Shown here: positions 12,179 to 59,695 of the stretch, piece by piece
Position numbering within the stretch: the first letter of the stretch is position 1
Layout of the letters: each line of letters opens with the position of its first letter
From: Candidatus Micrarchaeota archaeon
Lineage (GTDB): Archaea > Micrarchaeota > Micrarchaeia > Anstonellales > Bilamarchaeaceae
DNA: 64,000 bases
Direction: 5' to 3'
NCBI GenBank assembly: GCA_040757035.1
Contig: JBFLYM010000001.1
Span: forward strand, 12,222 to 76,221
The notes under the pieces: generated by a model
What the model saw: the letters and a program-made list of their open reading frames with translations, nothing else
The model's database searches: none
What the model was told of the DNA's origin: nothing
Translations under genes and position numbers: made by a program

Positions 12179-12607
12179 TTATCTTCTTGGTTTTTCCTTT
12201 CTCTTTTTTCTAAGCATTTGTAAATCAACTCCGTTTACTGCGATAACTTTGTATCTGACGCCTGGGACAGAGCCCATTTGACCGCGTTGCGAACCTCCCA
12301 TACCTGCTATAAGCACTTCATCATGCTCATCTATATAAGTAATAGCCTTTTCCCGCGTTGCGTGTGCGGTAACTGTTTTACCATTTTTAACCAACTGAAC
12401 TTTGACGCATTTAATAAGACCAGAATGCGGCTGTTTTTGCTCTAGAATTACTTTTTCAAGTACAATTCCTTTTGCCATTGGCGAGCCTTCAAGCGGATCA
12501 AATTTGGATTTAAGTTTTAGTGCTCTTCTTTTCCACCGTTTAGATAACCATCTATAAAGCTTTCTTTTTCTCTTAAGATTTCTGCCAGCATATTCTCCAT
12601 TTCCCAT
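12179..12607 (-). CDS. rps12: 30S ribosomal protein S12 (uS12).
   Basis: …VTAHATREKAITYIDEHDEVLIAGMGG…VPGVRYKVIAVNGV… matches S12. A GGTGA Shine-Dalgarno sits about 11 nt upstream. Confidence 0.9.
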   Translation of the reverse strand: MGNGEYAGRNLKRKRKLYRWLSKRWKRRALKLKSKFDPLEGSPMAKGIVLEKVILEQKQPHSGLIKCVKVQLVKNGKTVTAHATREKAITYIDEHDEVLIAGMGGSQRGQMGSVPGVRYKVIAVNGVDLQMLRKKRKEKPRR

Positions 12608-12837
12608 TGTTTCACCTAAATTTCTACTGTCTAAAGACCATAGAAATTTACAATTTACTATTTTATTATTATACTATGGATACCATACTATAATACTATT
12701 ATTTTAACATTTAATATTCTAAAAATATTTAAAATGTAGATTGTAGAAAATATAAATATATATCTAGTTTAATAATTATTGTGTTTACTATATTTATATT
12801 ATATCAAAATTCAATAAAAAACTAGAAAGTAATTACC

Positions 12838-30175: not shown

Positions 30176-30192
30176 TAAAAAAAGTGAATTTT

Positions 30193-31230
30193 ATGGGCGT
30201 AGAGTTGGGCGAAATAATTCCAAAGCATCCGATAACGCTTGAAGCGCTAAGCGGAAAAATAATTGCTTTAGACGCGTTCAATATACTTTATCAATTTCTT
30301 GCGTCGGTGCGGCAAGAAGATGGAAATCCGCTAATGGATTTTAAGGGCAGGCCTACAGGTCATCTCTCTGGTTTGTTTTATCGCAATGCGCGATTTATAG
30401 AAAACGGAATAAAACCGATATATGTTTTTGATGGCGAACCTCCTGAATTCAAAAAAAAAGAAATCGCGCGCAGAAAAGAAGCGAAAAAAGAGGCCGAAGC
30501 AAAATGGCGTGAAGCTTTGGATTACGAGCAAATAAAAGATGCGCAGAAATTTGCGAAGGCAACGAGCAAATTAACTCCTGAAATGATAGATGAGGCAAAG
30601 CAGTTGCTTTCAATATTGGGTATACCATATATAAATGCTCCGAGCGAAGGCGAAGCCCAGTCCGCATATATGGTAAAAAAAAACATTGCCTATGCATCGG
30701 CTTCACAAGATTATGATTCGCTTTTGTTCGGAGCGCCGCGTTTTATCAGAAATCTTTCTGTTACAGGTAAAAGAAAGGTTCCGCGACAAGATCGCTATAT
30801 TCTTGTTGAACCAGAAGAAATAATTTTTAACGAAGTTCTTTCATCTCTTCAAATTACTCACGAGCAGCTTATTTTGATGGGTATAATGTGCGGTACCGAT
30901 TTCAACCCTGGGATAAAAAAAATCGGGCCAAAAACAGCACTTAAAATAGTAAAGGAGCATAAAAATCTCTCTGAAGTAAAATTGTATGTAAAAACAAAAT
31001 ACGCGTATGAATTTGAAGGTGATATAGAAACGATTTTTGAATTTTTTTTAAACCCTCCAACGCTTGGTTGCGGCAAAATAGTATTTGGAGAGATTAATAC
31101 AGCAGCGGCTATCCATCTTTTGGTTGAAGAACACGATTTTTCTGATGAGCGAGTTGAACGCGTACTTGCAGAAATAGAAAAATCGTATAAAGAAAAAGGT
31201 GCGCAGAGAAAGATAGATGATTTTATTTAG
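30193..31230 (+). CDS. fen: Flap endonuclease 1 (FEN-1).
   Basis: MGVELGEIIPK…IALDAFNILYQFL…HLSGLFYR…IYVFDGEPPEFKKKE…APSEGEAQ…ASQDYDSLLFG… is collinear with archaeal FEN-1. Confidence 0.9.
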   Translation: MGVELGEIIPKHPITLEALSGKIIALDAFNILYQFLASVRQEDGNPLMDFKGRPTGHLSGLFYRNARFIENGIKPIYVFDGEPPEFKKKEIARRKEAKKEAEAKWREALDYEQIKDAQKFAKATSKLTPEMIDEAKQLLSILGIPYINAPSEGEAQSAYMVKKNIAYASASQDYDSLLFGAPRFIRNLSVTGKRKVPRQDRYILVEPEEIIFNEVLSSLQITHEQLILMGIMCGTDFNPGIKKIGPKTALKIVKEHKNLSEVKLYVKTKYAYEFEGDIETIFEFFLNPPTLGCGKIVFGEINTAAAIHLLVEEHDFSDERVERVLAEIEKSYKEKGAQRKIDDFI

Positions 31231-34068: not shown

Positions 34069-35433
34069 TCAACTCTCCTTGACAATTCTCTCAGCATCAA
34101 ATAATAAAACATCATTGCTTTCCTTTATTGTGAACCCCTTCTTACTAAATAAAACCCATTTTATTGGTTTCTTTGTTTTCAACACCTTCGCCGATTGTTT
34201 CAGATGCTCAAGCTCCTTTTCGCCTATCTCATTATCGCTCCATTTACACTCTCCTAAATAAAGCGATTTATCCGTCTCAATAACCAAATCGAGTTCTCGC
34301 TGCTCAAACTTGTCCTTCTCTACTTCAACGTTGCCCCACCACCTGCCGATTTTCGTTACTCGTTCGCCTTTCTTGTTGAGCCAATCAACTAAAAAGTCGG
34401 AACAGAGAAACTCGAATCTTTTGCCGAAAAAATTGTTCAATTCGTTCCTATCTGGCGCGATGGTCTTTCCATAAACGTAACTAAACCAGAACGCGAGTAA
34501 ATTGTCCTTTATAATATATATACCTTTTTTGCTTCGATAGATATTTTGGCCAAAAGGCACAACCCGTTCTATCAATTTGAAATCATTTTGCAGAGATTGA
34601 ATGTATTTTGAGAGTGTGGTTTGGAGTGCGCCCATTTTATTTGCTATTTCGCCAGTAGAAACCAAGCCATTTCCAATTGCCTCAAGTATCGAAAAATATT
34701 TTTTATATGCTGCTCCGAATTCCTGTCGTAGGATATCTTGGCCTTCTTCTCTCAATTGTCCAATACCAAAAAACAGATTCTCCGCTTTCTTTATTGATGG
34801 ATTATTCAGAAGCTCATAGAGCTCATAGTAATATGGGATGCCGCCAAAAATGCAATAGTTTTCAATTTGCTTTTCTGGATTAGAAATCCCCAAATCACGC
34901 TGAATAGCCCAAATCACCCCTGCTTTAAGTGGCTGCAATATAAATTTCAGCGTTGCTCTGTTGAAAAGGGGTGCCTTTCGTTTTGTGAAAATTTTATCCA
35001 TCATACTGACGTAAGAACCAGAAAGTATGAGTATTTTATTCGTCTTTTCCTTATGGATTTCCCAGAGTCTTTGCAACTCGTACGGTATGGCTGGATTGAT
35101 TTCTAAGGAGTTGGAGAATTCATCTATGCATAATATCCTATCCTTTGAATTGGTAAAGAAATAGCCAAGCGCTTCCTTAACTGTATTGAACGTAGGTTTA
35201 TAGCTGGCAGTAGCAAAAAGTTCAGCGAAGTCGGCCGCACACTGTTTTTCTTCTTTTGGGACTATTAAGATTTCCAATCCTTTGTTCTTAGCCAAAAATT
35301 CTTTCACAAGCCGACTCTTGCCGACTCTTCTTCTGCCGCTTATCACTATAATAGCCGAACCAAAATGTACCACTGTTTCTTGCAATGCTTTGAGTTCTTC
35401 GTCTCGATTATAAAACTTCATATTATTCACCAA
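34069..35433 (-). CDS. Archaeal ATPase (Arch_ATPase with a C-terminal DUF234-like region).
   Basis: FYNRDEELKAL…ISGRRRVGKS (Walker A), LCIDEF (Walker B). 454 aa. Confidence 0.7.
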   Translation of the reverse strand: MVNNMKFYNRDEELKALQETVVHFGSAIIVISGRRRVGKSRLVKEFLAKNKGLEILIVPKEEKQCAADFAELFATASYKPTFNTVKEALGYFFTNSKDRILCIDEFSNSLEINPAIPYELQRLWEIHKEKTNKILILSGSYVSMMDKIFTKRKAPLFNRATLKFILQPLKAGVIWAIQRDLGISNPEKQIENYCIFGGIPYYYELYELLNNPSIKKAENLFFGIGQLREEGQDILRQEFGAAYKKYFSILEAIGNGLVSTGEIANKMGALQTTLSKYIQSLQNDFKLIERVVPFGQNIYRSKKGIYIIKDNLLAFWFSYVYGKTIAPDRNELNNFFGKRFEFLCSDFLVDWLNKKGERVTKIGRWWGNVEVEKDKFEQRELDLVIETDKSLYLGECKWSDNEIGEKELEHLKQSAKVLKTKKPIKWVLFSKKGFTIKESNDVLLFDAERIVKES

Positions 35434-50738: not shown

Positions 50739-51416
50739 AAAATTCTCAATAAAAAAATAGAAATAATTCCTGCTATTCTGGTAAAAACAAGAAAAATTCT
50801 TGTTGAATACATAAAAAAAGTAGAACGATATGTAAAGCGAATTCATATAGATATAATGGATAATAAATTTGTTCCAAACCTAACTTTAGGAACTAAAGAA
50901 CTTAATGAACTTCCGCAGAATGTAGCATACGAATTTCATTGGATGGTGTACACCCCGGAAAAATGGATAATAAAAACAAAGCAAAAATATCCAAAAGCAA
51001 AACAAAAATATTTTCATATTGTTCATATAGAAGTAATAGACAAGAATTGGGAGCAAATAAAAAAAGCAGTAAAAAATGTGCATGGAAATATTGGTTTAGC
51101 GATAAATCCTGAAACTCCGATAAAAAAAGTTTTCCCGTACATAAGAGATGTGAAAAAAGTTTTGATAATGTCTGTTCATCCTGGTTTTTCAGGGCAGAAG
51201 TATATCAAAAAAGTTGAAAAGAAAATTTTGATTTTGAGAAAAAAATTTCCAAGACTAGATATTGAAGTAGATGGTGGAATAAACAGCAAAACTGTTATTT
51301 CAGCTATAAAATCAGGGGCAAATAAAATTGCGGTTGCGAGCGCAGTATTTGATACTAAAAATGCGAAAAGAGCAATAGAAAAACTTAGAAAAATTATTGT
51401 TCAACATACTGATTAA
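50739..51416 (+). CDS. rpe: Ribulose-phosphate 3-epimerase.
   Basis: …IHIDIMDNKFVPNLTLG…SVHPGFSGQKY…VDGGIN… A TATA-like ttctataaag lies about 50 nt upstream, so the ATG at 50739 is preferred over the TTG at 50715. Confidence 0.85.
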   Translation, partial: KILNKKIEIIPAILVKTRKILVEYIKKVERYVKRIHIDIMDNKFVPNLTLGTKELNELPQNVAYEFHWMVYTPEKWIIKTKQKYPKAKQKYFHIVHIEVIDKNWEQIKKAVKNVHGNIGLAINPETPIKKVFPYIRDVKKVLIMSVHPGFSGQKYIKKVEKKILILRKKFPRLDIEVDGGINSKTVISAIKSGANKIAVASAVFDTKNAKRAIEKLRKIIVQHTD

Positions 51417-52284
51417 CGTGTTGATCGCTATGCGCGCTAAAATTACAAACTTGAAACAATTGAATCTTATTGCGAATACAATAAGACAAAACGTAATTAA
51501 AATGCTTCATGAAGCAAAAAGCGGGCATTCTGCAGGTTCGCTCGGACTCGCTGATATTTTTACCGCGCTTTATTTTAATGTTTTATATCACGATCCGCAA
51601 AACCCGCAATGGGATGATCGAGATAGGTTGATTTTGTCCAATGGGCATGTTTGTCCAGTTTTATACGCTACGCTGGCTAATGCAGATTATTTTCCAAAAA
51701 CAGAACTCATGACATTACGAAAACTTGGTTCGCGACTTCAAGGGCACCCACACAAAGGCACACTTCCCGGCATAGAAAATTCATCTGGTCCGCTTGCACA
51801 GGGGCTTTCTCAAGCGGTTGGAATGGCGATAGTTTCAAAGGCAGAAAAAAAGAAATGGCGCGTATATTGCATAGTCAGCGATGGAGAACAGCAGGAAGGA
51901 CAGAATTGGGAGGCGGTGATGTTGGCTGTAAAATATAAACTTGGGAATTTAACCGTAATAATGGATAGAAATAACATACAGATAGATGGTTTTACAGAGG
52001 AAATAATGCCTCTTGAACCAATTGTAGATAAATACAAGTCGTTTGGTTGGCATGTAATCCAGGTGGATGGGCATAACATTCAAAAAGTAATAGAAGCGTG
52101 CGAGGAGAGCAAAGCGATTTATGAAAGACCGACAATAATTATTGCGCACACAATTCCTGGAAAAGGAATACCGTTTATGGAATTTTTGGCTGAATGGCAT
52201 GGAAAAACGCCGAGTAAGGAAGAAGCGGAAAAGGCGATGGACATTTTGCTTGAATCTAGAAAAGAAATAGAAAATGAAGCGTAA
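51397..52284 (+). CDS. tkt: Transketolase, N-terminal (TPP-binding) subunit.
   Basis: …GHSAGSLG…LSNGH…GPLAQGLSQAVGMA…SDGEQQEG…. Confidence 0.9.
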   Translation: MFNILINVLIAMRAKITNLKQLNLIANTIRQNVIKMLHEAKSGHSAGSLGLADIFTALYFNVLYHDPQNPQWDDRDRLILSNGHVCPVLYATLANADYFPKTELMTLRKLGSRLQGHPHKGTLPGIENSSGPLAQGLSQAVGMAIVSKAEKKKWRVYCIVSDGEQQEGQNWEAVMLAVKYKLGNLTVIMDRNNIQIDGFTEEIMPLEPIVDKYKSFGWHVIQVDGHNIQKVIEACEESKAIYERPTIIIAHTIPGKGIPFMEFLAEWHGKTPSKEEAEKAMDILLESRKEIENEA

Positions 52285-52365
52285 ATGGTGTAAATGATTT
52301 TATAAAATGATTTTATATAATCTTATGATTTTAGTAATTTTGTTTAGACTGATTAATGTGATTTT

Positions 52366-53382
52366 GTGCTCAATCCAGAAATGCATCTTGATTTGAACGG
52401 AAAACAGAGTTCGCTACGCGATGGATTTGGAAAATCCTTATTGGCGCTTGGCGAACAAGATCCAAATCTATGGGTTATTACTGCGGATGTCGCAGAGTCA
52501 ACTCGCGTTCATTGGTTCGCTGAAAAATTCCCAAAAAGATTTGTGCAGGTTGGCATTGCCGAACAAAACATGGCGAGTGTTGCGTCTGGAATCGCAGCGT
52601 GCGGAAAAACAGTGGTAATTTCATCATTCGGGGCCTTTAATCCAGGAAGAAATTTTGATCAGATAAGAGTTTCAATATGTTATAATAATGTAAAAGTAAT
52701 TATACATGCATCGCATACTGGGATTACTGTAGGCGCTGATGGCGCGTCGCACCAAATGTTGGAAGATATTGCAATGATGCGCGCGCTTCCAAACATCGCT
52801 GTAATTGTTCCTGCTGATGCCGAAGAAGCGAGAAAAGCGACTATTGCTGCGCATTCTTTGGGATATCCCGCATATATTCGCACTGGAAGGGAAAAATTTC
52901 CGGATTTTACAACTTCTGAAACTCCGTTTGGATTAGGAAAGGCAAACGTACTGCGCGACGGAAAAGACATAGTGATTTTTGCGTGCGGAGTGGAAGTTCT
53001 TCAATCCCTCAAAGCAGCTGAAATACTTGAGAAGGATGGAATAAGCGCAGCAGTAATAAACGTGCATACCATCAAACCGATCGACTGTGAAACCATAATA
53101 AAATATTCAAAAAAATGCGGGCTTGCTATTTCGGTTGAGGAGCACCAGATAAATGGCGGATTGGGAAGTGCAATTGCTGAGGTAATTAGCGAATATGTTT
53201 GCGTTCCACTTAAACGGCACGGTATTTACAATACATTTGCAGAATCAGGCGAAGCATCAGAACTTATGAAAAAATATAAACTAGATGCACAGGGAATTTA
53301 CGAAGTTGTGAAAAAAACTATTAGCGATTGTAAAGAGATAGAATATAGGAAAATGCATATTCACTTGGATGAGTATAAATGA
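52366..53382 (+). CDS. tkt: Transketolase, C-terminal (pyrimidine-binding) subunit.
   Basis: …FVQVGIAEQNMASVASGIA…SSFGAF… and a C-terminal transketolase C domain. Confidence 0.9.
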   Translation: MLNPEMHLDLNGKQSSLRDGFGKSLLALGEQDPNLWVITADVAESTRVHWFAEKFPKRFVQVGIAEQNMASVASGIAACGKTVVISSFGAFNPGRNFDQIRVSICYNNVKVIIHASHTGITVGADGASHQMLEDIAMMRALPNIAVIVPADAEEARKATIAAHSLGYPAYIRTGREKFPDFTTSETPFGLGKANVLRDGKDIVIFACGVEVLQSLKAAEILEKDGISAAVINVHTIKPIDCETIIKYSKKCGLAISVEEHQINGGLGSAIAEVISEYVCVPLKRHGIYNTFAESGEASELMKKYKLDAQGIYEVVKKTISDCKEIEYRKMHIHLDEYK

Positions 53383-53399: not shown

Positions 53400-54227
53400 T
53401 TGATTTCGTTGGAAAACATAAAAGAAGAGATGAACGTAAACGAACTGAGCGTAAACGAACAAATCGAACAAATTAACGATGCGTGGAAAGACATATGTAA
53501 GGTATTGTTCGGCGAAGAAATAGGACCATTAAAAGAATATGCAGATTACCTCGTTAAATATGTAGATATTTCCCTAAACAGAAAGAAATCCGCGTTGTCT
53601 GGAAAGTCAGTTATAACTGCGTCAAAGAATGTACATCAGAATGCGAAATTCATACGCAACGATGAAATCTCGATTTTTGAAAAAAGAATTGGAAACAAAC
53701 CTTTAGATATAAACAAAATAAAGGATTTTGACTCGCTAATCGAATGCGTGCAAGAAAAAGTATTTTACGCAGGTGATATTGTTCTCGGAAATTCAAAAAA
53801 CGTAGAAAAATCAGATAGATGTGTGAATGCATGTTATGTTTATTGGTCTCAAGATGTTTACGCTAGCAAATATATTGTGTATTCGGATTCAATAAAAGTA
53901 TGCGAGTATCTATTTGGATGTAGTGCAGCGGGAGAAACAAAATACGGAATCAAGAATTTCGAAGCACACAAAACTATAAGGTGTTTGGAAGTTTATCGCA
54001 CATACACTTCGTCTGATTGCTATTTTACCGGTAATCTAGAATGTTGCAACAATTGTATGTTTTCCTTTAACTTACGAAACAAAAACCGCATGATCGGTAA
54101 TGTTCAATTTTCCAAGGAAGAATACTCTTCGCTGAAACAAAAACTAATTGAAGATATTCGAGATAGTTTACAAGCAAAAAAGTTTATTCTTAGTATAATA
54201 GATATAATTCGTGAGGGTCATGAATGA
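53400..54227 (+). CDS. Cys-rich protein of unknown function, paralog 1. Degenerate 12-residue Cys repeats in the C-terminal half.
   Basis: …CYFTGNLECCNNCMFSFNLRNKNRMIGN… No signal peptide. Homologous to the next ORF (shared VEKSD…MF.FN…K.R.IGN…EY). Confidence 0.45.
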   Translation: MISLENIKEEMNVNELSVNEQIEQINDAWKDICKVLFGEEIGPLKEYADYLVKYVDISLNRKKSALSGKSVITASKNVHQNAKFIRNDEISIFEKRIGNKPLDINKIKDFDSLIECVQEKVFYAGDIVLGNSKNVEKSDRCVNACYVYWSQDVYASKYIVYSDSIKVCEYLFGCSAAGETKYGIKNFEAHKTIRCLEVYRTYTSSDCYFTGNLECCNNCMFSFNLRNKNRMIGNVQFSKEEYSSLKQKLIEDIRDSLQAKKFILSIIDIIREGHE

Positions 54228-54990
54228 GGAAATGAAAAAAAGAATGGAAAACGCGTTTGAATCCACATCGCAAATCATATTCAGAAAAAGACTTTGCGGA
54301 CTCGATAATTATTCGGATTGGCTTAGTTTACATGTAAGCAAACCATTAGAACGAAGTTCGGCTATAAGCAAACAAACAGTATACTGTCCAAATATTTTAT
54401 TTTTCAAATTTTTAGGAAATGGTATTGTAACACTTGCCGAGTCAATCGAATTAGGAAAAAAAAGCATTTTGAAAGAGGATGCAGAAAATCTAACATTGTC
54501 AAATGCAACTCTCCTACTGAAAGAAATAAGCTATACAACAACAGAAGCAGTTGTTGGGACTAATCTCGATGTTGAAAAATCCGATATATACGGATATTCT
54601 TATCATTGTTATAACGGTACTTATTTTGTTTACAGTAAATATTGCGCATATTGTTTTTGGCCAAGGGAATCTGAATATTGTTTTGGTTCGGTATATACAT
54701 TCAATTCGAAATTTTGCATAAAATGTTATTATTCGACTAATCTTACGCGATGTTTTGAAATGCTCAATTGTTATAATTGTAGCGATTGTTATTTCTGCTA
54801 CAATTCGGAAAATTTAATGGAATGTATGTTTTGCTTCAACACGAAAAGCAAGAGATATGCCATAGGGAATATTAAAGTAGGAAAAGAAAACTATGTTAAA
54901 ATAAAGAAAATTATGATGGATGAAATAGTGAAAAGGCTGGAAAAAGACAAAAAAATAGATATTAACATCTATAACATTGAAAAATATTGA
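54211..54990 (+). CDS. Cys-rich protein of unknown function, paralog 2. Six or more tandem 12-residue units, each ending in Cys.
   Basis: YHCYNGTYFVYSKYC|AYCFWPRESEYC|FGSVYTFNSKFC|IKCYYSTNLTRC|FEMLNCYNCSDC|YFCYNSENLMEC|MFCFNTK. 17-nt overlap with paralog 1. Confidence 0.45.
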   Translation: MRVMNEEMKKRMENAFESTSQIIFRKRLCGLDNYSDWLSLHVSKPLERSSAISKQTVYCPNILFFKFLGNGIVTLAESIELGKKSILKEDAENLTLSNATLLLKEISYTTTEAVVGTNLDVEKSDIYGYSYHCYNGTYFVYSKYCAYCFWPRESEYCFGSVYTFNSKFCIKCYYSTNLTRCFEMLNCYNCSDCYFCYNSENLMECMFCFNTKSKRYAIGNIKVGKENYVKIKKIMMDEIVKRLEKDKKIDINIYNIEKY

Positions 54991-55113
54991 AATGCAAGTG
55001 GATGTTAGTGAAAAGCTTTTTAAATTTTATGACATACTAAATGTATATTCATGTAAGGTTCTCTGCCAGGAATGATTTTTATTAATCTTGTTTGGGATAA
55101 TTTATTCTCAGTT

Positions 55114-55226
55114 TGGGCTCGCGCGGAATCGGACCGCGAATCTTTACCGTGTCAGGGTAATGTCTTTTACAGCTACTTAAATTAAACAAGATTTAAGTTA
55201 AGTAGTAACCATTCGACTACGAGCCC
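55114..55226 (-). tRNA. tRNA-Val(GAC) with a ~40-nt non-canonical intron between the D-arm and the anticodon stem.
   Basis: Minus-strand read: acceptor GGGCTCG/CGAGCCC plus discriminator A. D-arm GTCG-AATGGTTA-CTAC (one mismatch). Anticodon arm TTACC-CTGACAC-GGTAA. Variable loop AGATT. T-arm CGCGG-TCCGATT-CCGCG. The intron contains the hairpin cttaaat…atttaag. Confidence 0.55.
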
Positions 55227-55269
55227 ATGATTGCTTTTGCTATATCTATAAAATATAGGATGTTCAATC

Positions 55270-58373: not shown

Positions 58374-59135
58374 TTATCTTGTTTTAATCCACTCAAGAAT
58401 TGCGTTTTCAGCTGTATCAAAATCAACAAGTTTCCCAAATACTATTTGTTTAAGCTCTTTATTCCAATCATCTCTTTTCTTTTTTAAGCTATCAACAAAT
58501 TCCTGTTCTGAAAAAATTTCATCGTAATATTTAAGTTTTTTATTTATCAATTCAATGTTAAATTTTATCCCTTTATTCTTAATAAGAAAGAACAGATCAT
58601 AAACATCTCTTGGCTTTTTTCTTTTCATAATTGCTCTTATTTTTTCAGCTGCCACTTCATTAATACTCATTCCATTAATTATCTTAGTTGGTGCTTCATA
58701 TGCATCGAAATTTAGCTTTACTGAAAGACTATCTGCTACAAGATTCTCCCTTTTGCTTATTTCTACGTAGATATGGCACAAATCTATATCAGATGTGTTA
58801 AGTGGACCCTTAGCGCTCACGCGAAATGAAAAATTACAATCGCTGTTATTAATTCTTTTTAGTATATTTTCTACTCCAAACAATCTAAGTCCTTCTGAAA
58901 CTTTTGTATCTAGATCGTTTGGTAAATCTCCAATTGCCATTAAATCCACATCTTCGGAGAATCTATCAAGACCGTGAAAAAACCAGAGATATGTTCCACC
59001 TTTAAATACAAGTGGGTACTCTGAAAGTGTTACAAAAATAAAGAACTGTATGTAATGCTTCTCTTGCTGCCATGTTTTTCTATCATACAATTTTGCAATA
59101 GAGATTAATTTTTCCTTGCTTATCATTTCAACCAC
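58374..59135 (-). CDS. AbiEii/DUF1814 nucleotidyltransferase toxin (type IV toxin-antitoxin).
   Basis: …FKGGTYLWFFHGLDRFSEDVDLMA… is the nucleotidyltransferase signature of AbiEii. Overlaps the upstream antitoxin by 13 nt. Confidence 0.7.
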   Translation of the reverse strand: MVEMISKEKLISIAKLYDRKTWQQEKHYIQFFIFVTLSEYPLVFKGGTYLWFFHGLDRFSEDVDLMAIGDLPNDLDTKVSEGLRLFGVENILKRINNSDCNFSFRVSAKGPLNTSDIDLCHIYVEISKRENLVADSLSVKLNFDAYEAPTKIINGMSINEVAAEKIRAIMKRKKPRDVYDLFFLIKNKGIKFNIELINKKLKYYDEIFSEQEFVDSLKKKRDDWNKELKQIVFGKLVDFDTAENAILEWIKTR

Positions 59136-59695
59136 TCAGATATTTTCTTCTTTCCCCAACCATAAAATCGTTCTAAGTACTCATTTAGTTTCTTTTTGTC
59201 TAAATCATTATATATCTCTTTCACAACGTCTTTAGATGTAGTATCAAGATAAATTGCATCGATAATTGCTTTTTCAGGATCTGCTACAATAATATAACTA
59301 AAATCCTTTTTGTATTTTTTGTAGCCATAAAAAAGTCGTGACGGTATTTTGTAATATTTTATACCAAGCGAATTATACTCTCTGCTATTCGTTGTAGTAA
59401 CGCATTGAACATTTTTAGGTACCTGCTTGATGAGTTGATGAAACAACAATGCTGAAAATAATGATATATACGATGGTTCGATAAGCTGACTTGCGATAAC
59501 GAAATTATCACTGGTAAATGAAATTTTTCCCCGCAATACTTTTTCTGCAAGGCCCTTTTTTGTCAATCTTGTTGAGTATACTTTTGCAATTGTTTTTGGT
59601 TTATTTATAAGGTTTGCGAGTTGCTGTATTGAATAAAGTGCTCTGCCCGCTCGCTTGGCCATCTCTTTTATTTCATATAGATTCGTCTTTTTCAT
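59123..59695 (-). CDS. AbiEi-family antitoxin/transcriptional regulator (COG5340-like).
   Basis: N-terminal wHTH (…RALYSIQQLANLINKPKTIAKVYSTRLTKKGLAEKV…) and a C-terminal AbiEi_4-like domain. Immediately upstream of AbiEii. Confidence 0.65.
   Translation of the reverse strand: MKKTNLYEIKEMAKRAGRALYSIQQLANLINKPKTIAKVYSTRLTKKGLAEKVLRGKISFTSDNFVIASQLIEPSYISLFSALLFHQLIKQVPKNVQCVTTTNSREYNSLGIKYYKIPSRLFYGYKKYKKDFSYIIVADPEKAIIDAIYLDTTSKDVVKEIYNDLDKKKLNEYLERFYGWGKKKISEWLK

Follow-up and report, generated by a model that had tools for sequence, protein, structure and literature searches.

Beta-solenoids built from coils of only 12 residues make up a short list of protein folds. The familiar Cys-rich case is the antifreeze protein of Tenebrio molitor (TmAFP; pdb:1ezg), in which the inward-facing residues of each coil are small (C2, S5, C8 and A11), and 12-residue helices of this kind are otherwise familiar from secreted proteins. 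The coils of curli CsgA, of the ryegrass ice-binding protein and of YadA-like heads are longer (14–23 residues). Two overlapping open reading frames (ORFs) of 275 and 259 amino acids (aa), here called A and B, lie in a 64-kb stretch of the genome of a Candidatus Micrarchaeota archaeon (the window, 64,000 nucleotides in all). An original prediction made from the letters of this stretch described them as tandem, cytoplasmic, Cys-rich paralogs with a 12-residue repeat, and both are present as it stated. The probable reading, in our judgement, is that A and B make up one unit of an undescribed two-partner family of narrow beta-solenoids that is seen almost only in Micrarchaeota. The family would add a new sequence family to the list of 12-residue-coil beta-solenoids, together with a cytoplasmic example of a Cys/Ser/Val ladder and, in its obligate pairing, a clear instance of the Rosetta-stone principle.

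The family is large. In a word-indexed search B had 168 relatives, and A, which is more divergent, had 13. When 1.84 billion cluster representatives were searched exhaustively with a profile, 331 matched at E<=1e-30, 619 at E<=1e-10 and 1,864 at E<=1e-3, and the best of these are mostly proteins of ~525 aa in which two stretches match. GTDB genomes, scanned at one per species, gave 188 relatives. All relatives in the databases are named ‘hypothetical protein’ and lack a Pfam domain. Taxonomy was taken from the best 77 loci of the genome scan, and these bear the label Micrarchaeota or Micrarchaeia, with Anstonellaceae and Bilamarchaeum among them, except for two metagenome-assembled genomes (MAGs) labelled ‘archaeon’ and two further MAGs (three loci) that apparently belong to Iainarchaeum. 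Among the matches listed, the family has so far been seen almost only in Micrarchaeota. No relatives were found in the viral contigs of IMG/VR, in GenBank phages or in the plasmids of PLSDB.

The family is strictly paired. Modules were typed with separate A and B hidden Markov models (HMMs) in 78 non-redundant loci from ~50 species genomes, which hold 80 A, 83 B and 110 A–B fusions. A precedes B throughout, and the only exceptions are contig ends and one ORF-calling artefact. More than one third of the units are fused, and neither A nor B was ever found alone. Arrays extend to 10 units, as in the order ‘AB AB A B A B A B AB’ (loci L001 and L004, of Bilamarchaeum) or the ten consecutive fusions of L068. 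Strict pairing and frequent fusion in the same order point, by classic Rosetta-stone logic, to joint action of A and B. Since the fusion is in addition predicted as one compact body (see below), A and B probably work as a pseudo-symmetric heterodimer. The shared array of L001 (986-16747) and L004 (2980-17376) contains additional AB genes, and an ATPase gene, on the other strand; in L001 a 77-aa ORF (12460-12693, minus strand) separates an AB gene from the ATPase gene.

At the window locus the pair occurs once only, and no further copies of the family were found in the 64 kb by tblastn or by HMM searches of six-frame ORFs. The two proteins are 100% identical to the NCBI entries AB1391_00405 and AB1391_00410. 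The start of A is uncertain, as the NCBI entry has 272 aa and the ATG at 53430 is a better fit to the N-terminus of the family. The likely true start of B is the ATG at 54220, giving 256 aa as in the NCBI entry. With this start the junction reads ATGAATGA and B overlaps the stop codon of A at 54225-54227, which suggests that translation of A and B is coupled. Each of the two is closest to its counterpart in the final split pair of arrays that are linked to the ATPase in other genomes (51–56% identity), the median identity of modules across the family being 37–38%. The features of the pair are collected in Table 1 with those of an ATPase gene of the window that is discussed later.

Table 1. Positions of the A/B pair, its predicted parts and the window ATPase gene with its neighbours
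Feature	Position in window	Strand	Basis or remark
ORF A (A-type module)	53400..54227	+	275 aa from TTG 53400; A-type by the separate A and B HMMs
A solenoid, ten 12-residue coils (A residues 123-242)	53766..54125	+	Gapless HMM alignment to B109-228; AF2 strand/turn register of the A half in fusion P0134
A C-terminal long helix (A residues 243-260), short tail after it	54126..54179	+	Alignment to the helix of AF2 models
ORF B (B-type module)	54211..54990	+	259 aa from GTG 54211
B N-terminal alpha/beta domain (residues 1-108)	54211..54534	+	Conserved motifs Y34, W37-L38, K-S50-x-x-S53
B solenoid, ten 12-residue coils (residues 109-228)	54535..54894	+	Cys/Ser/Val ladders at unit positions 1, 4, 7, 10
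B conserved Cys-dense terminal coils (residues 169-222)	54715..54876	+	Entropy and column table
B C-terminal long helix (residues 224-246)	54880..54948	+	AF2
FEN1/XPG	30184-31230	+
FtsK/HerA/TrwB-like P-loop ATPase, 568 aa	31328..33034	-	Orthologue (52-65% identity) of the array-abutting ATPase in other Micrarchaeota
Archaeal ATPase_2/DUF234 protein	34069-35433	-

That the two are tandem paralogs is correct over their full length, for A and B align end to end (BLASTP, 28% identity over ~250 aa, E 2e-24). They share ten 12-residue rows without a gap in the HMM alignment, A123-242 corresponding to B109-228. The repeat consensus is C-hydrophobic-x-[CS]-aromatic-N-[ST]-x-N-[SL]-x-[YF]. In B, Cys residues stand at 133, 145, 157, 169, 181, 193 and 205, exactly 12 apart, with a second Cys at +3 in four rows (148, 172, 196 and 208) and additional ones at 187 and 190. 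All 13 Cys between residues 133 and 208 thus fall in one residue class modulo 3, for which the chance is (1/3)^12 or ~2e-6. In A, the rung position is Cys in three rows only (C195, C207 and C219) and V, I, L, Y, G or M in the others; further Cys (C141, C168, C174 and C216) occupy repeat positions 4, 7 and 10. With so few rung Cys in A, the repeat scaffold is common to both proteins and the Cys pattern is largely that of B. The Cys-rich 12-residue repeat that had been claimed for the pair therefore holds for B, with its seven Cys 12 apart, and holds for A as to the rows, but not as to the Cys. The periodicity is conserved in homologs: in 363 full modules of the family, Cys–Cys spacings are nearly all multiples of 3, chiefly 3, 9 and 12, though z-scores for this are inflated by the relatedness of the sequences.

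The fold was predicted with AlphaFold2 (AF2). The model of a natural fusion, P0134, made from an alignment of 118 sequences, has a predicted local distance difference test score (pLDDT) of 93.9 and a predicted template modelling score (pTM) of 0.92, which indicates that both halves would form one defined compact body. When DSSP assignments for P0134 are set against the 12-residue rows, the register is the same in both halves with a strand/turn period of 6. A strand occupies unit positions 11-12-1-2, a turn 3-4, a second strand 5-8 and a second turn 9-10, so that a coil is a four-residue strand and a two-residue turn, twice over. Each partner is predicted to comprise an N-terminal alpha/beta domain of ~110 residues, a flattened two-sheet beta-solenoid of ten coils and a long C-terminal helix. 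The original idea of a beta-solenoid is in this way upheld by the models.

Comparison of the predicted solenoid with solved structures gave the curli protein CsgA of Pontibacter korlensis (pdb:8c50; score 9.5), phi29 gp12 (pdb:3gq7; 8.4), the ryegrass ice-binding protein (pdb:3ult; 7.9, 2.0 Å over 88 residues), several YadA-like adhesin heads (5-6.7) and the 12-residue beetle antifreeze protein (pdb:1ezg; 5.7). As these share just 5–13% sequence identity with the predicted solenoid, the likeness is one of fold class and not of homology. The N-terminal domain gave no match in the structural comparison, and a search for structural or sequence relatives of that of B found none. The fold class is known already; what is new is the family, with its paired architecture.

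The likeness to TmAFP extends to the 12-residue coil, to the small residue at every third position and to the Cys ladder. A and B have no sequence homology to TmAFP, however, and lack its TCT motif and TCTxSxxCxxAx consensus. Their Cys are placed at i and i+3 rather than at the i and i+6 of TmAFP, they have no signal peptide, and they possess an extra N-terminal domain and C-terminal helix and come in pairs. CsgA resembles the predicted A/B fold in being a two-sheet beta-solenoid. CsgA, the ryegrass protein and the YadA-like heads are nevertheless secreted or surface proteins. For A and B neither a curlin match in Pfam nor a Sec signal was found, and the recurrent neighbours include no partner genes of the curli (csgBEFG) or autotransporter kind. 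Neither a match to the hexapeptide-repeat model nor the triangular 18-residue coil (three hexapeptides) of the left-handed beta-helix transferases was seen.

No significant match to a known family was found in Pfam, NCBIfam, PADLOC, PHROGs or the sequences of the PDB, whether the query was a single sequence or a 46-sequence profile, nor with Foldseek against the PDB, and full-text literature searches gave no description of the family. Its lack of assignment in the original prediction thus persists after the homology searches and the Foldseek comparison that had been proposed as checks. The secreted ‘CysRRep’ repeats (bioRxiv 10.64898/2026.06.07.730663) have a different motif and are unrelated. 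As CxxC pairs recur every 12 residues, the proteins could be an array of known zinc ribbons or zinc knuckles, or the Cys pattern could be an accident in non-functional ORFs. The zinc-finger and zinc-ribbon models of Pfam and NCBIfam and the solved structures of the PDB were unmatched by sequence and by profile, the best being zf-CXXC in 2/46 members (E 0.0019) and Fn14 (E 0.92); a solenoid is predicted; and there are hundreds of conserved homologues with a ratio of nonsynonymous to synonymous substitution (dN/dS) below 0.1. Profile searches, the AF2 solenoid and dN/dS together practically refute both forms of this explanation, and homology to a characterized domain, named at the outset as what would overturn the prediction, did not appear in these searches.

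A and B appear to be cytoplasmic, as had been proposed. Neither has a signal peptide or a transmembrane (TM) segment, their N-termini are acidic or polar, and the maximum Kyte-Doolittle hydropathy over 19 residues is 0.86 for A and 1.28 for B. For Cys-rich proteins in such a compartment, metal (Zn or Fe-S) ligation had been suggested as the role of the Cys. This was assessed with the same 363 modules (176 A and 187 B). At unit positions 1, 4, 7 and 10 the residues are C, S, T, G, V, I or L. The share of Cys in most Cys columns is just 13–67%, the replacements being Ser, Val, Ile or other aliphatic residues, and the first rungs of A-type modules are mainly Val or Ile. Covariation between Cys is weak, with a maximum phi of 0.38 and its highest values at i+9, i+3 and i+12, and for the presence of Cys at i+6 the correlation is negative (mean phi -0.12), giving no support to disulphide pairing of the TmAFP kind. 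Column exchange and weak coupling fit core packing better than obligatory sets of ligands. We read the Cys of most rungs as mainly core packing residues, and metal ligation as their general role is not supported. Since TmAFP has the same ladder at every third residue and it faces inward there, the ladder of A and B (unit positions 1, 4, 7 and 10) would by analogy face a narrow lumen.

The terminal coils of B are different. In B-type modules, six Cys of the final four to five coils are highly conserved (C208 100%, C181 92%, C172 89%, C190 87%, C196 84% and C169 81%) and are accompanied by the near-invariant R180, E183, D192, H197, N198, F207, N210 and N220. These coils are the most conserved part of the family, with a mean entropy of 1.26 bits against ~2.5 bits elsewhere. 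The window B retains all six Cys in residues 169-222 together with R180, E183, D192, N198, F207, N210 and N220, and has Y197, S199 and S160 at positions that are H, C and C in the majority of B-type modules. A-type modules retain C202 (86%), C205 (79%), C193 (66%) and C181 (62%). This conserved Cys cluster of B could still be a metal or redox site.

A more definite form of this idea, compatible with the solenoid and in our view possible but doubtful, is that the thiolate-lined lumen of the last B coils, perhaps with C181, C193, C202 and C205 of A, contains Zn, Fe-S or soft metal ions in a short chain and serves to store, sense or transfer metal or electrons. The proteins are apparently cytoplasmic and their Cys fraction is 4.6% against a background of 1.35%; the six B-type Cys remain 81–100% conserved while other rungs vary; His197 is 93% conserved beside C196 in B-type modules; C202 and C205 of A-type modules co-occur (phi 0.36); and the metal-free AF2 monomer of B is unsure of this region. 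To be set against this are the exchange of most Cys columns with Ser, Val or Ile, the lack of any variable Cys pair or quartet that covaries strongly, the absence of H197, C199 and C160 from the window B, and the deep-alignment AF2 model, which is confident without metal. Models of zinc fingers, ferredoxins and rubredoxins are unmatched apart from the zf-CXXC hits given above and Fer4_6 in 1/46 members (E 0.18), and the ferredoxin motif CxxCxxCxxxCP is absent. The copper storage proteins Csp1 and Csp3 are four-helix bundles whose core is lined with many Cys thiolates and which occur in the cytosol. They offer a possible functional analogy in their Cys-lined core, but have another fold, and in the A/B family most Cys positions can be taken by Ser or Val.

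The motif CxxCH, the attachment motif of heme c, occurs in 94/187 B-type modules (C193, C196 and the 93%-conserved H197). As these proteins have no signal peptide, its presence is probably coincidental. The motif is absent from the window A and B, where residues 193-197 of B (54787-54801) read CYFCY, and the window pair thus has neither the CXXCH nor the export signal of c-type cytochromes. H197 of B-type modules could be a metal ligand.

The arrays allow selection to be examined. The genes of L001 and L004 match one-to-one by position, with 76–87% identity on the diagonal and 27–48% off it. Nonsynonymous substitution (dN) is 0.11-0.13 for all nine genes, synonymous substitution (dS) is saturated and dN/dS is below 0.1. 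The paralogs are therefore old and distinct, and each is strongly constrained. For this pair of arrays, and over the time that separates them, rapidly diversifying ‘arms-race’ genes are rejected by the dN of ~0.12 against saturated dS. The modules are near neutral, with a median net charge of 0 to +1, so that their charge does not point to a DNA mimic or nucleic-acid binder. Micrarchaeota have genomes of ~1 Mb, and some of them keep 8–10 or more units at a single locus (12–16 kb) under strong purifying selection. So many constrained units in small genomes imply that the family does something important to Micrarchaeota.

Equal and strong constraint on nine array paralogs is what would be expected of the subunits of one assembly. 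Dimers of A and B might stack through the open ends of their solenoids, as bactofilins and curli do, with the paralog pairs co-polymerizing into an intracellular filament or lattice, and the fusions and strict pairing would suit such a scaffold. We nevertheless hold self-assembly to be distinctly unlikely. The N-terminal domain and C-terminal helix of each module may cap the solenoid ends, the copy number varies from one to at least 10 units per locus, and bactofilin and curli models are unmatched, no bactofilin model being among the Pfam matches of the 46 members.

The genes around the family were compared by clustering the ORFs around the 78 loci and typing cluster representatives with Pfam. 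The original prediction had placed the pair immediately downstream of rpe-tktN-tktC. These genes do lie directly upstream of A in the window, but the adjacency is not conserved: tkt is near the family in only 2/78 loci, 5–6 kb away and on the opposite strand. With rpe-tkt nearby in just two other loci, the adjacency is local to the window genome, and a transketolase link as a conserved feature is ruled out. The recurrent neighbours are others. An FtsK/HerA/TrwB-like ATPase of 620–730 aa adjoins the family in 26 loci with a median gap of 18 bp, convergent in 18/28 cases and co-directional in 10. An HTH_10 regulator of ~238 aa is found at 18 loci, usually directly upstream and on the same strand in 17/20 cases. 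Regulators of the Lrp/AsnC type (12 loci, median gap 128 bp) and the TrmB type (10 loci, median gap 107 bp) are less frequent. The family thus appears to be tied genomically to the FtsK/HerA-type ATPase and to HTH_10 regulators and not to transketolase, and a functional link with the ATPase may exist. The strict A-then-B or fused organization, the arrays of up to tenfold and the recurrent ATPase and HTH_10 neighbours all go beyond the original prediction. In L002 and L003 a 149-aa ORF with an RVT_1 match (1484-1933, minus strand) adjoins ribosomal protein genes ~4 kb upstream of the cluster of ATPase and solenoid genes.

The genomic logic of an FtsK-family ATPase near many paralogous adjacent pairs without a Sec signal recalls EsxA/EsxB and PE/PPE of type VII secretion. 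By this comparison the ATPase would export signal-less A/B heterodimers, the Cys ladder would oxidize to disulphides outside the cell, and the proteins would act at the interface of symbiont and host. The ATPase adjoins 26/78 loci and has weak matches, at the level of the P-loop, to EccC and TraD models; the C-terminal tails are frequently rich in Lys or Arg; and the precedent for a 12-residue Cys-rich helix, TmAFP, is secreted. The type VII substrates (WXG100, PE and PPE) are helical hairpins, however, in contrast to the predicted solenoid, and the ATPase reaches EccC with E 3.6e-6 and 25.6 bits against a cut-off of 346 bits. It is mostly convergent with the arrays, and one ATPase N-terminus (L016), judged by eye and with no hydropathy or TM scan behind it, lacks an obvious hydrophobic stretch. 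The neighbours yielded no conserved membrane partner, Cys at i and i+6, the TmAFP disulphide spacing, are negatively correlated, and selection is strongly purifying and not diversifying. Export is accordingly a very improbable role.

Several points tell against the family as we have described it, or narrow it. The 1,245 weaker matches (E 1e-10 to 1e-3) of the exhaustive search lie outside the taxonomic listing, and restriction to Micrarchaeota is not proven. The AF2 model of B alone, from an alignment of 46 sequences, has a pLDDT of only 58–73 in the Cys-rich coils, so that the confident picture of the fold comes from a homologous fusion and not from the proteins of the window. In P0134 the Cys-rich coils mostly reach 86–97, with one dip to 74–81; they may be stabilized by the A partner, or the gain may merely reflect the deeper alignment (118 sequences against 46). 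Six Cys as highly conserved as those of B exceed the need of a purely structural role. As to the ATPase, its convergent (3' to 3') orientation in 18/28 cases means that it is not co-transcribed with the arrays in those cases, and its link with them may reflect inherited synteny and not function. The window ATPase is 20 kb from the A/B pair and provides context only.

The two-partner solenoid family remains the reading we prefer, and a mechanism can be sketched for it, tentatively, as we give the scheme as a whole somewhat less than an even chance. The A/B dimer would be a soluble binding scaffold in the cytoplasm. Its variable N-terminal coils and N-domains would confer partner specificity on each paralog pair, and the last four coils of B (C169, C172, C181, C190, C196 and C208 with R180, E183, D192, N198 and N210) would form a functional site common to all pairs. 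That site would probably be thiol-based, for metal or redox chemistry, or a docking place for a partner. A bolder proposal, which we regard as unlikely, is that the family is a new thiolate-lined beta-solenoid whose narrow lumen holds, in the terminal coils, a metal cluster or short chain of metal ions, and that arrays, ATPase and HTH_10 regulator form a new system of ultra-small symbiotic archaea, for example in metal or redox handling or in delivery of the dimer to a partner. Should the Cys cluster bind metal, or the link with the ATPase be functional, DPANN archaea would possess a new lineage-specific system. The proteins are small and apparently soluble, which makes the family a tractable target.

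The window ATPase sits between the FEN1/XPG gene and the gene for the archaeal ATPase_2/DUF234 protein (Table 1). Known ATPase families are reached from it only at the level of the P-loop, and its best match in the defence databases is mad8 (E 3.8e-13).

Some further features of the window may be recorded. The transketolase upstream of A is split into N- and C-terminal genes with a gap of 81 nt (51397-53382), and the first 20 nt of the tktN ORF coincide with the end of rpe. Downstream of B, on the opposite strand, are genes for a CTP-dependent riboflavin kinase, an AAA_assoc_C protein and TFB. Between B and the riboflavin kinase gene there is a probable intron-containing tRNA (~55106-55228, minus strand). 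By eye, the putative tRNA has acceptor-stem halves GGGCUCG ... CGAGCCC around a T-arm and an anticodon arm, a loop CUGACAC with the anticodon GAC (Val), and ~40 additional bases that separate the D region from the anticodon stem; the tRNA model of Rfam covers only 55121-55176 with 22.5 bits, under the gathering score of 29, and ARAGORN finds nothing. Farther on, a gene for a nucleotidyltransferase toxin of the AbiEii family (58374-59135, minus strand; Pfam E 3.9e-25) overlaps an upstream ORF of 190 aa without a Pfam match (59123-59695, minus strand), and the two probably constitute a toxin–antitoxin pair of the AbiE type.

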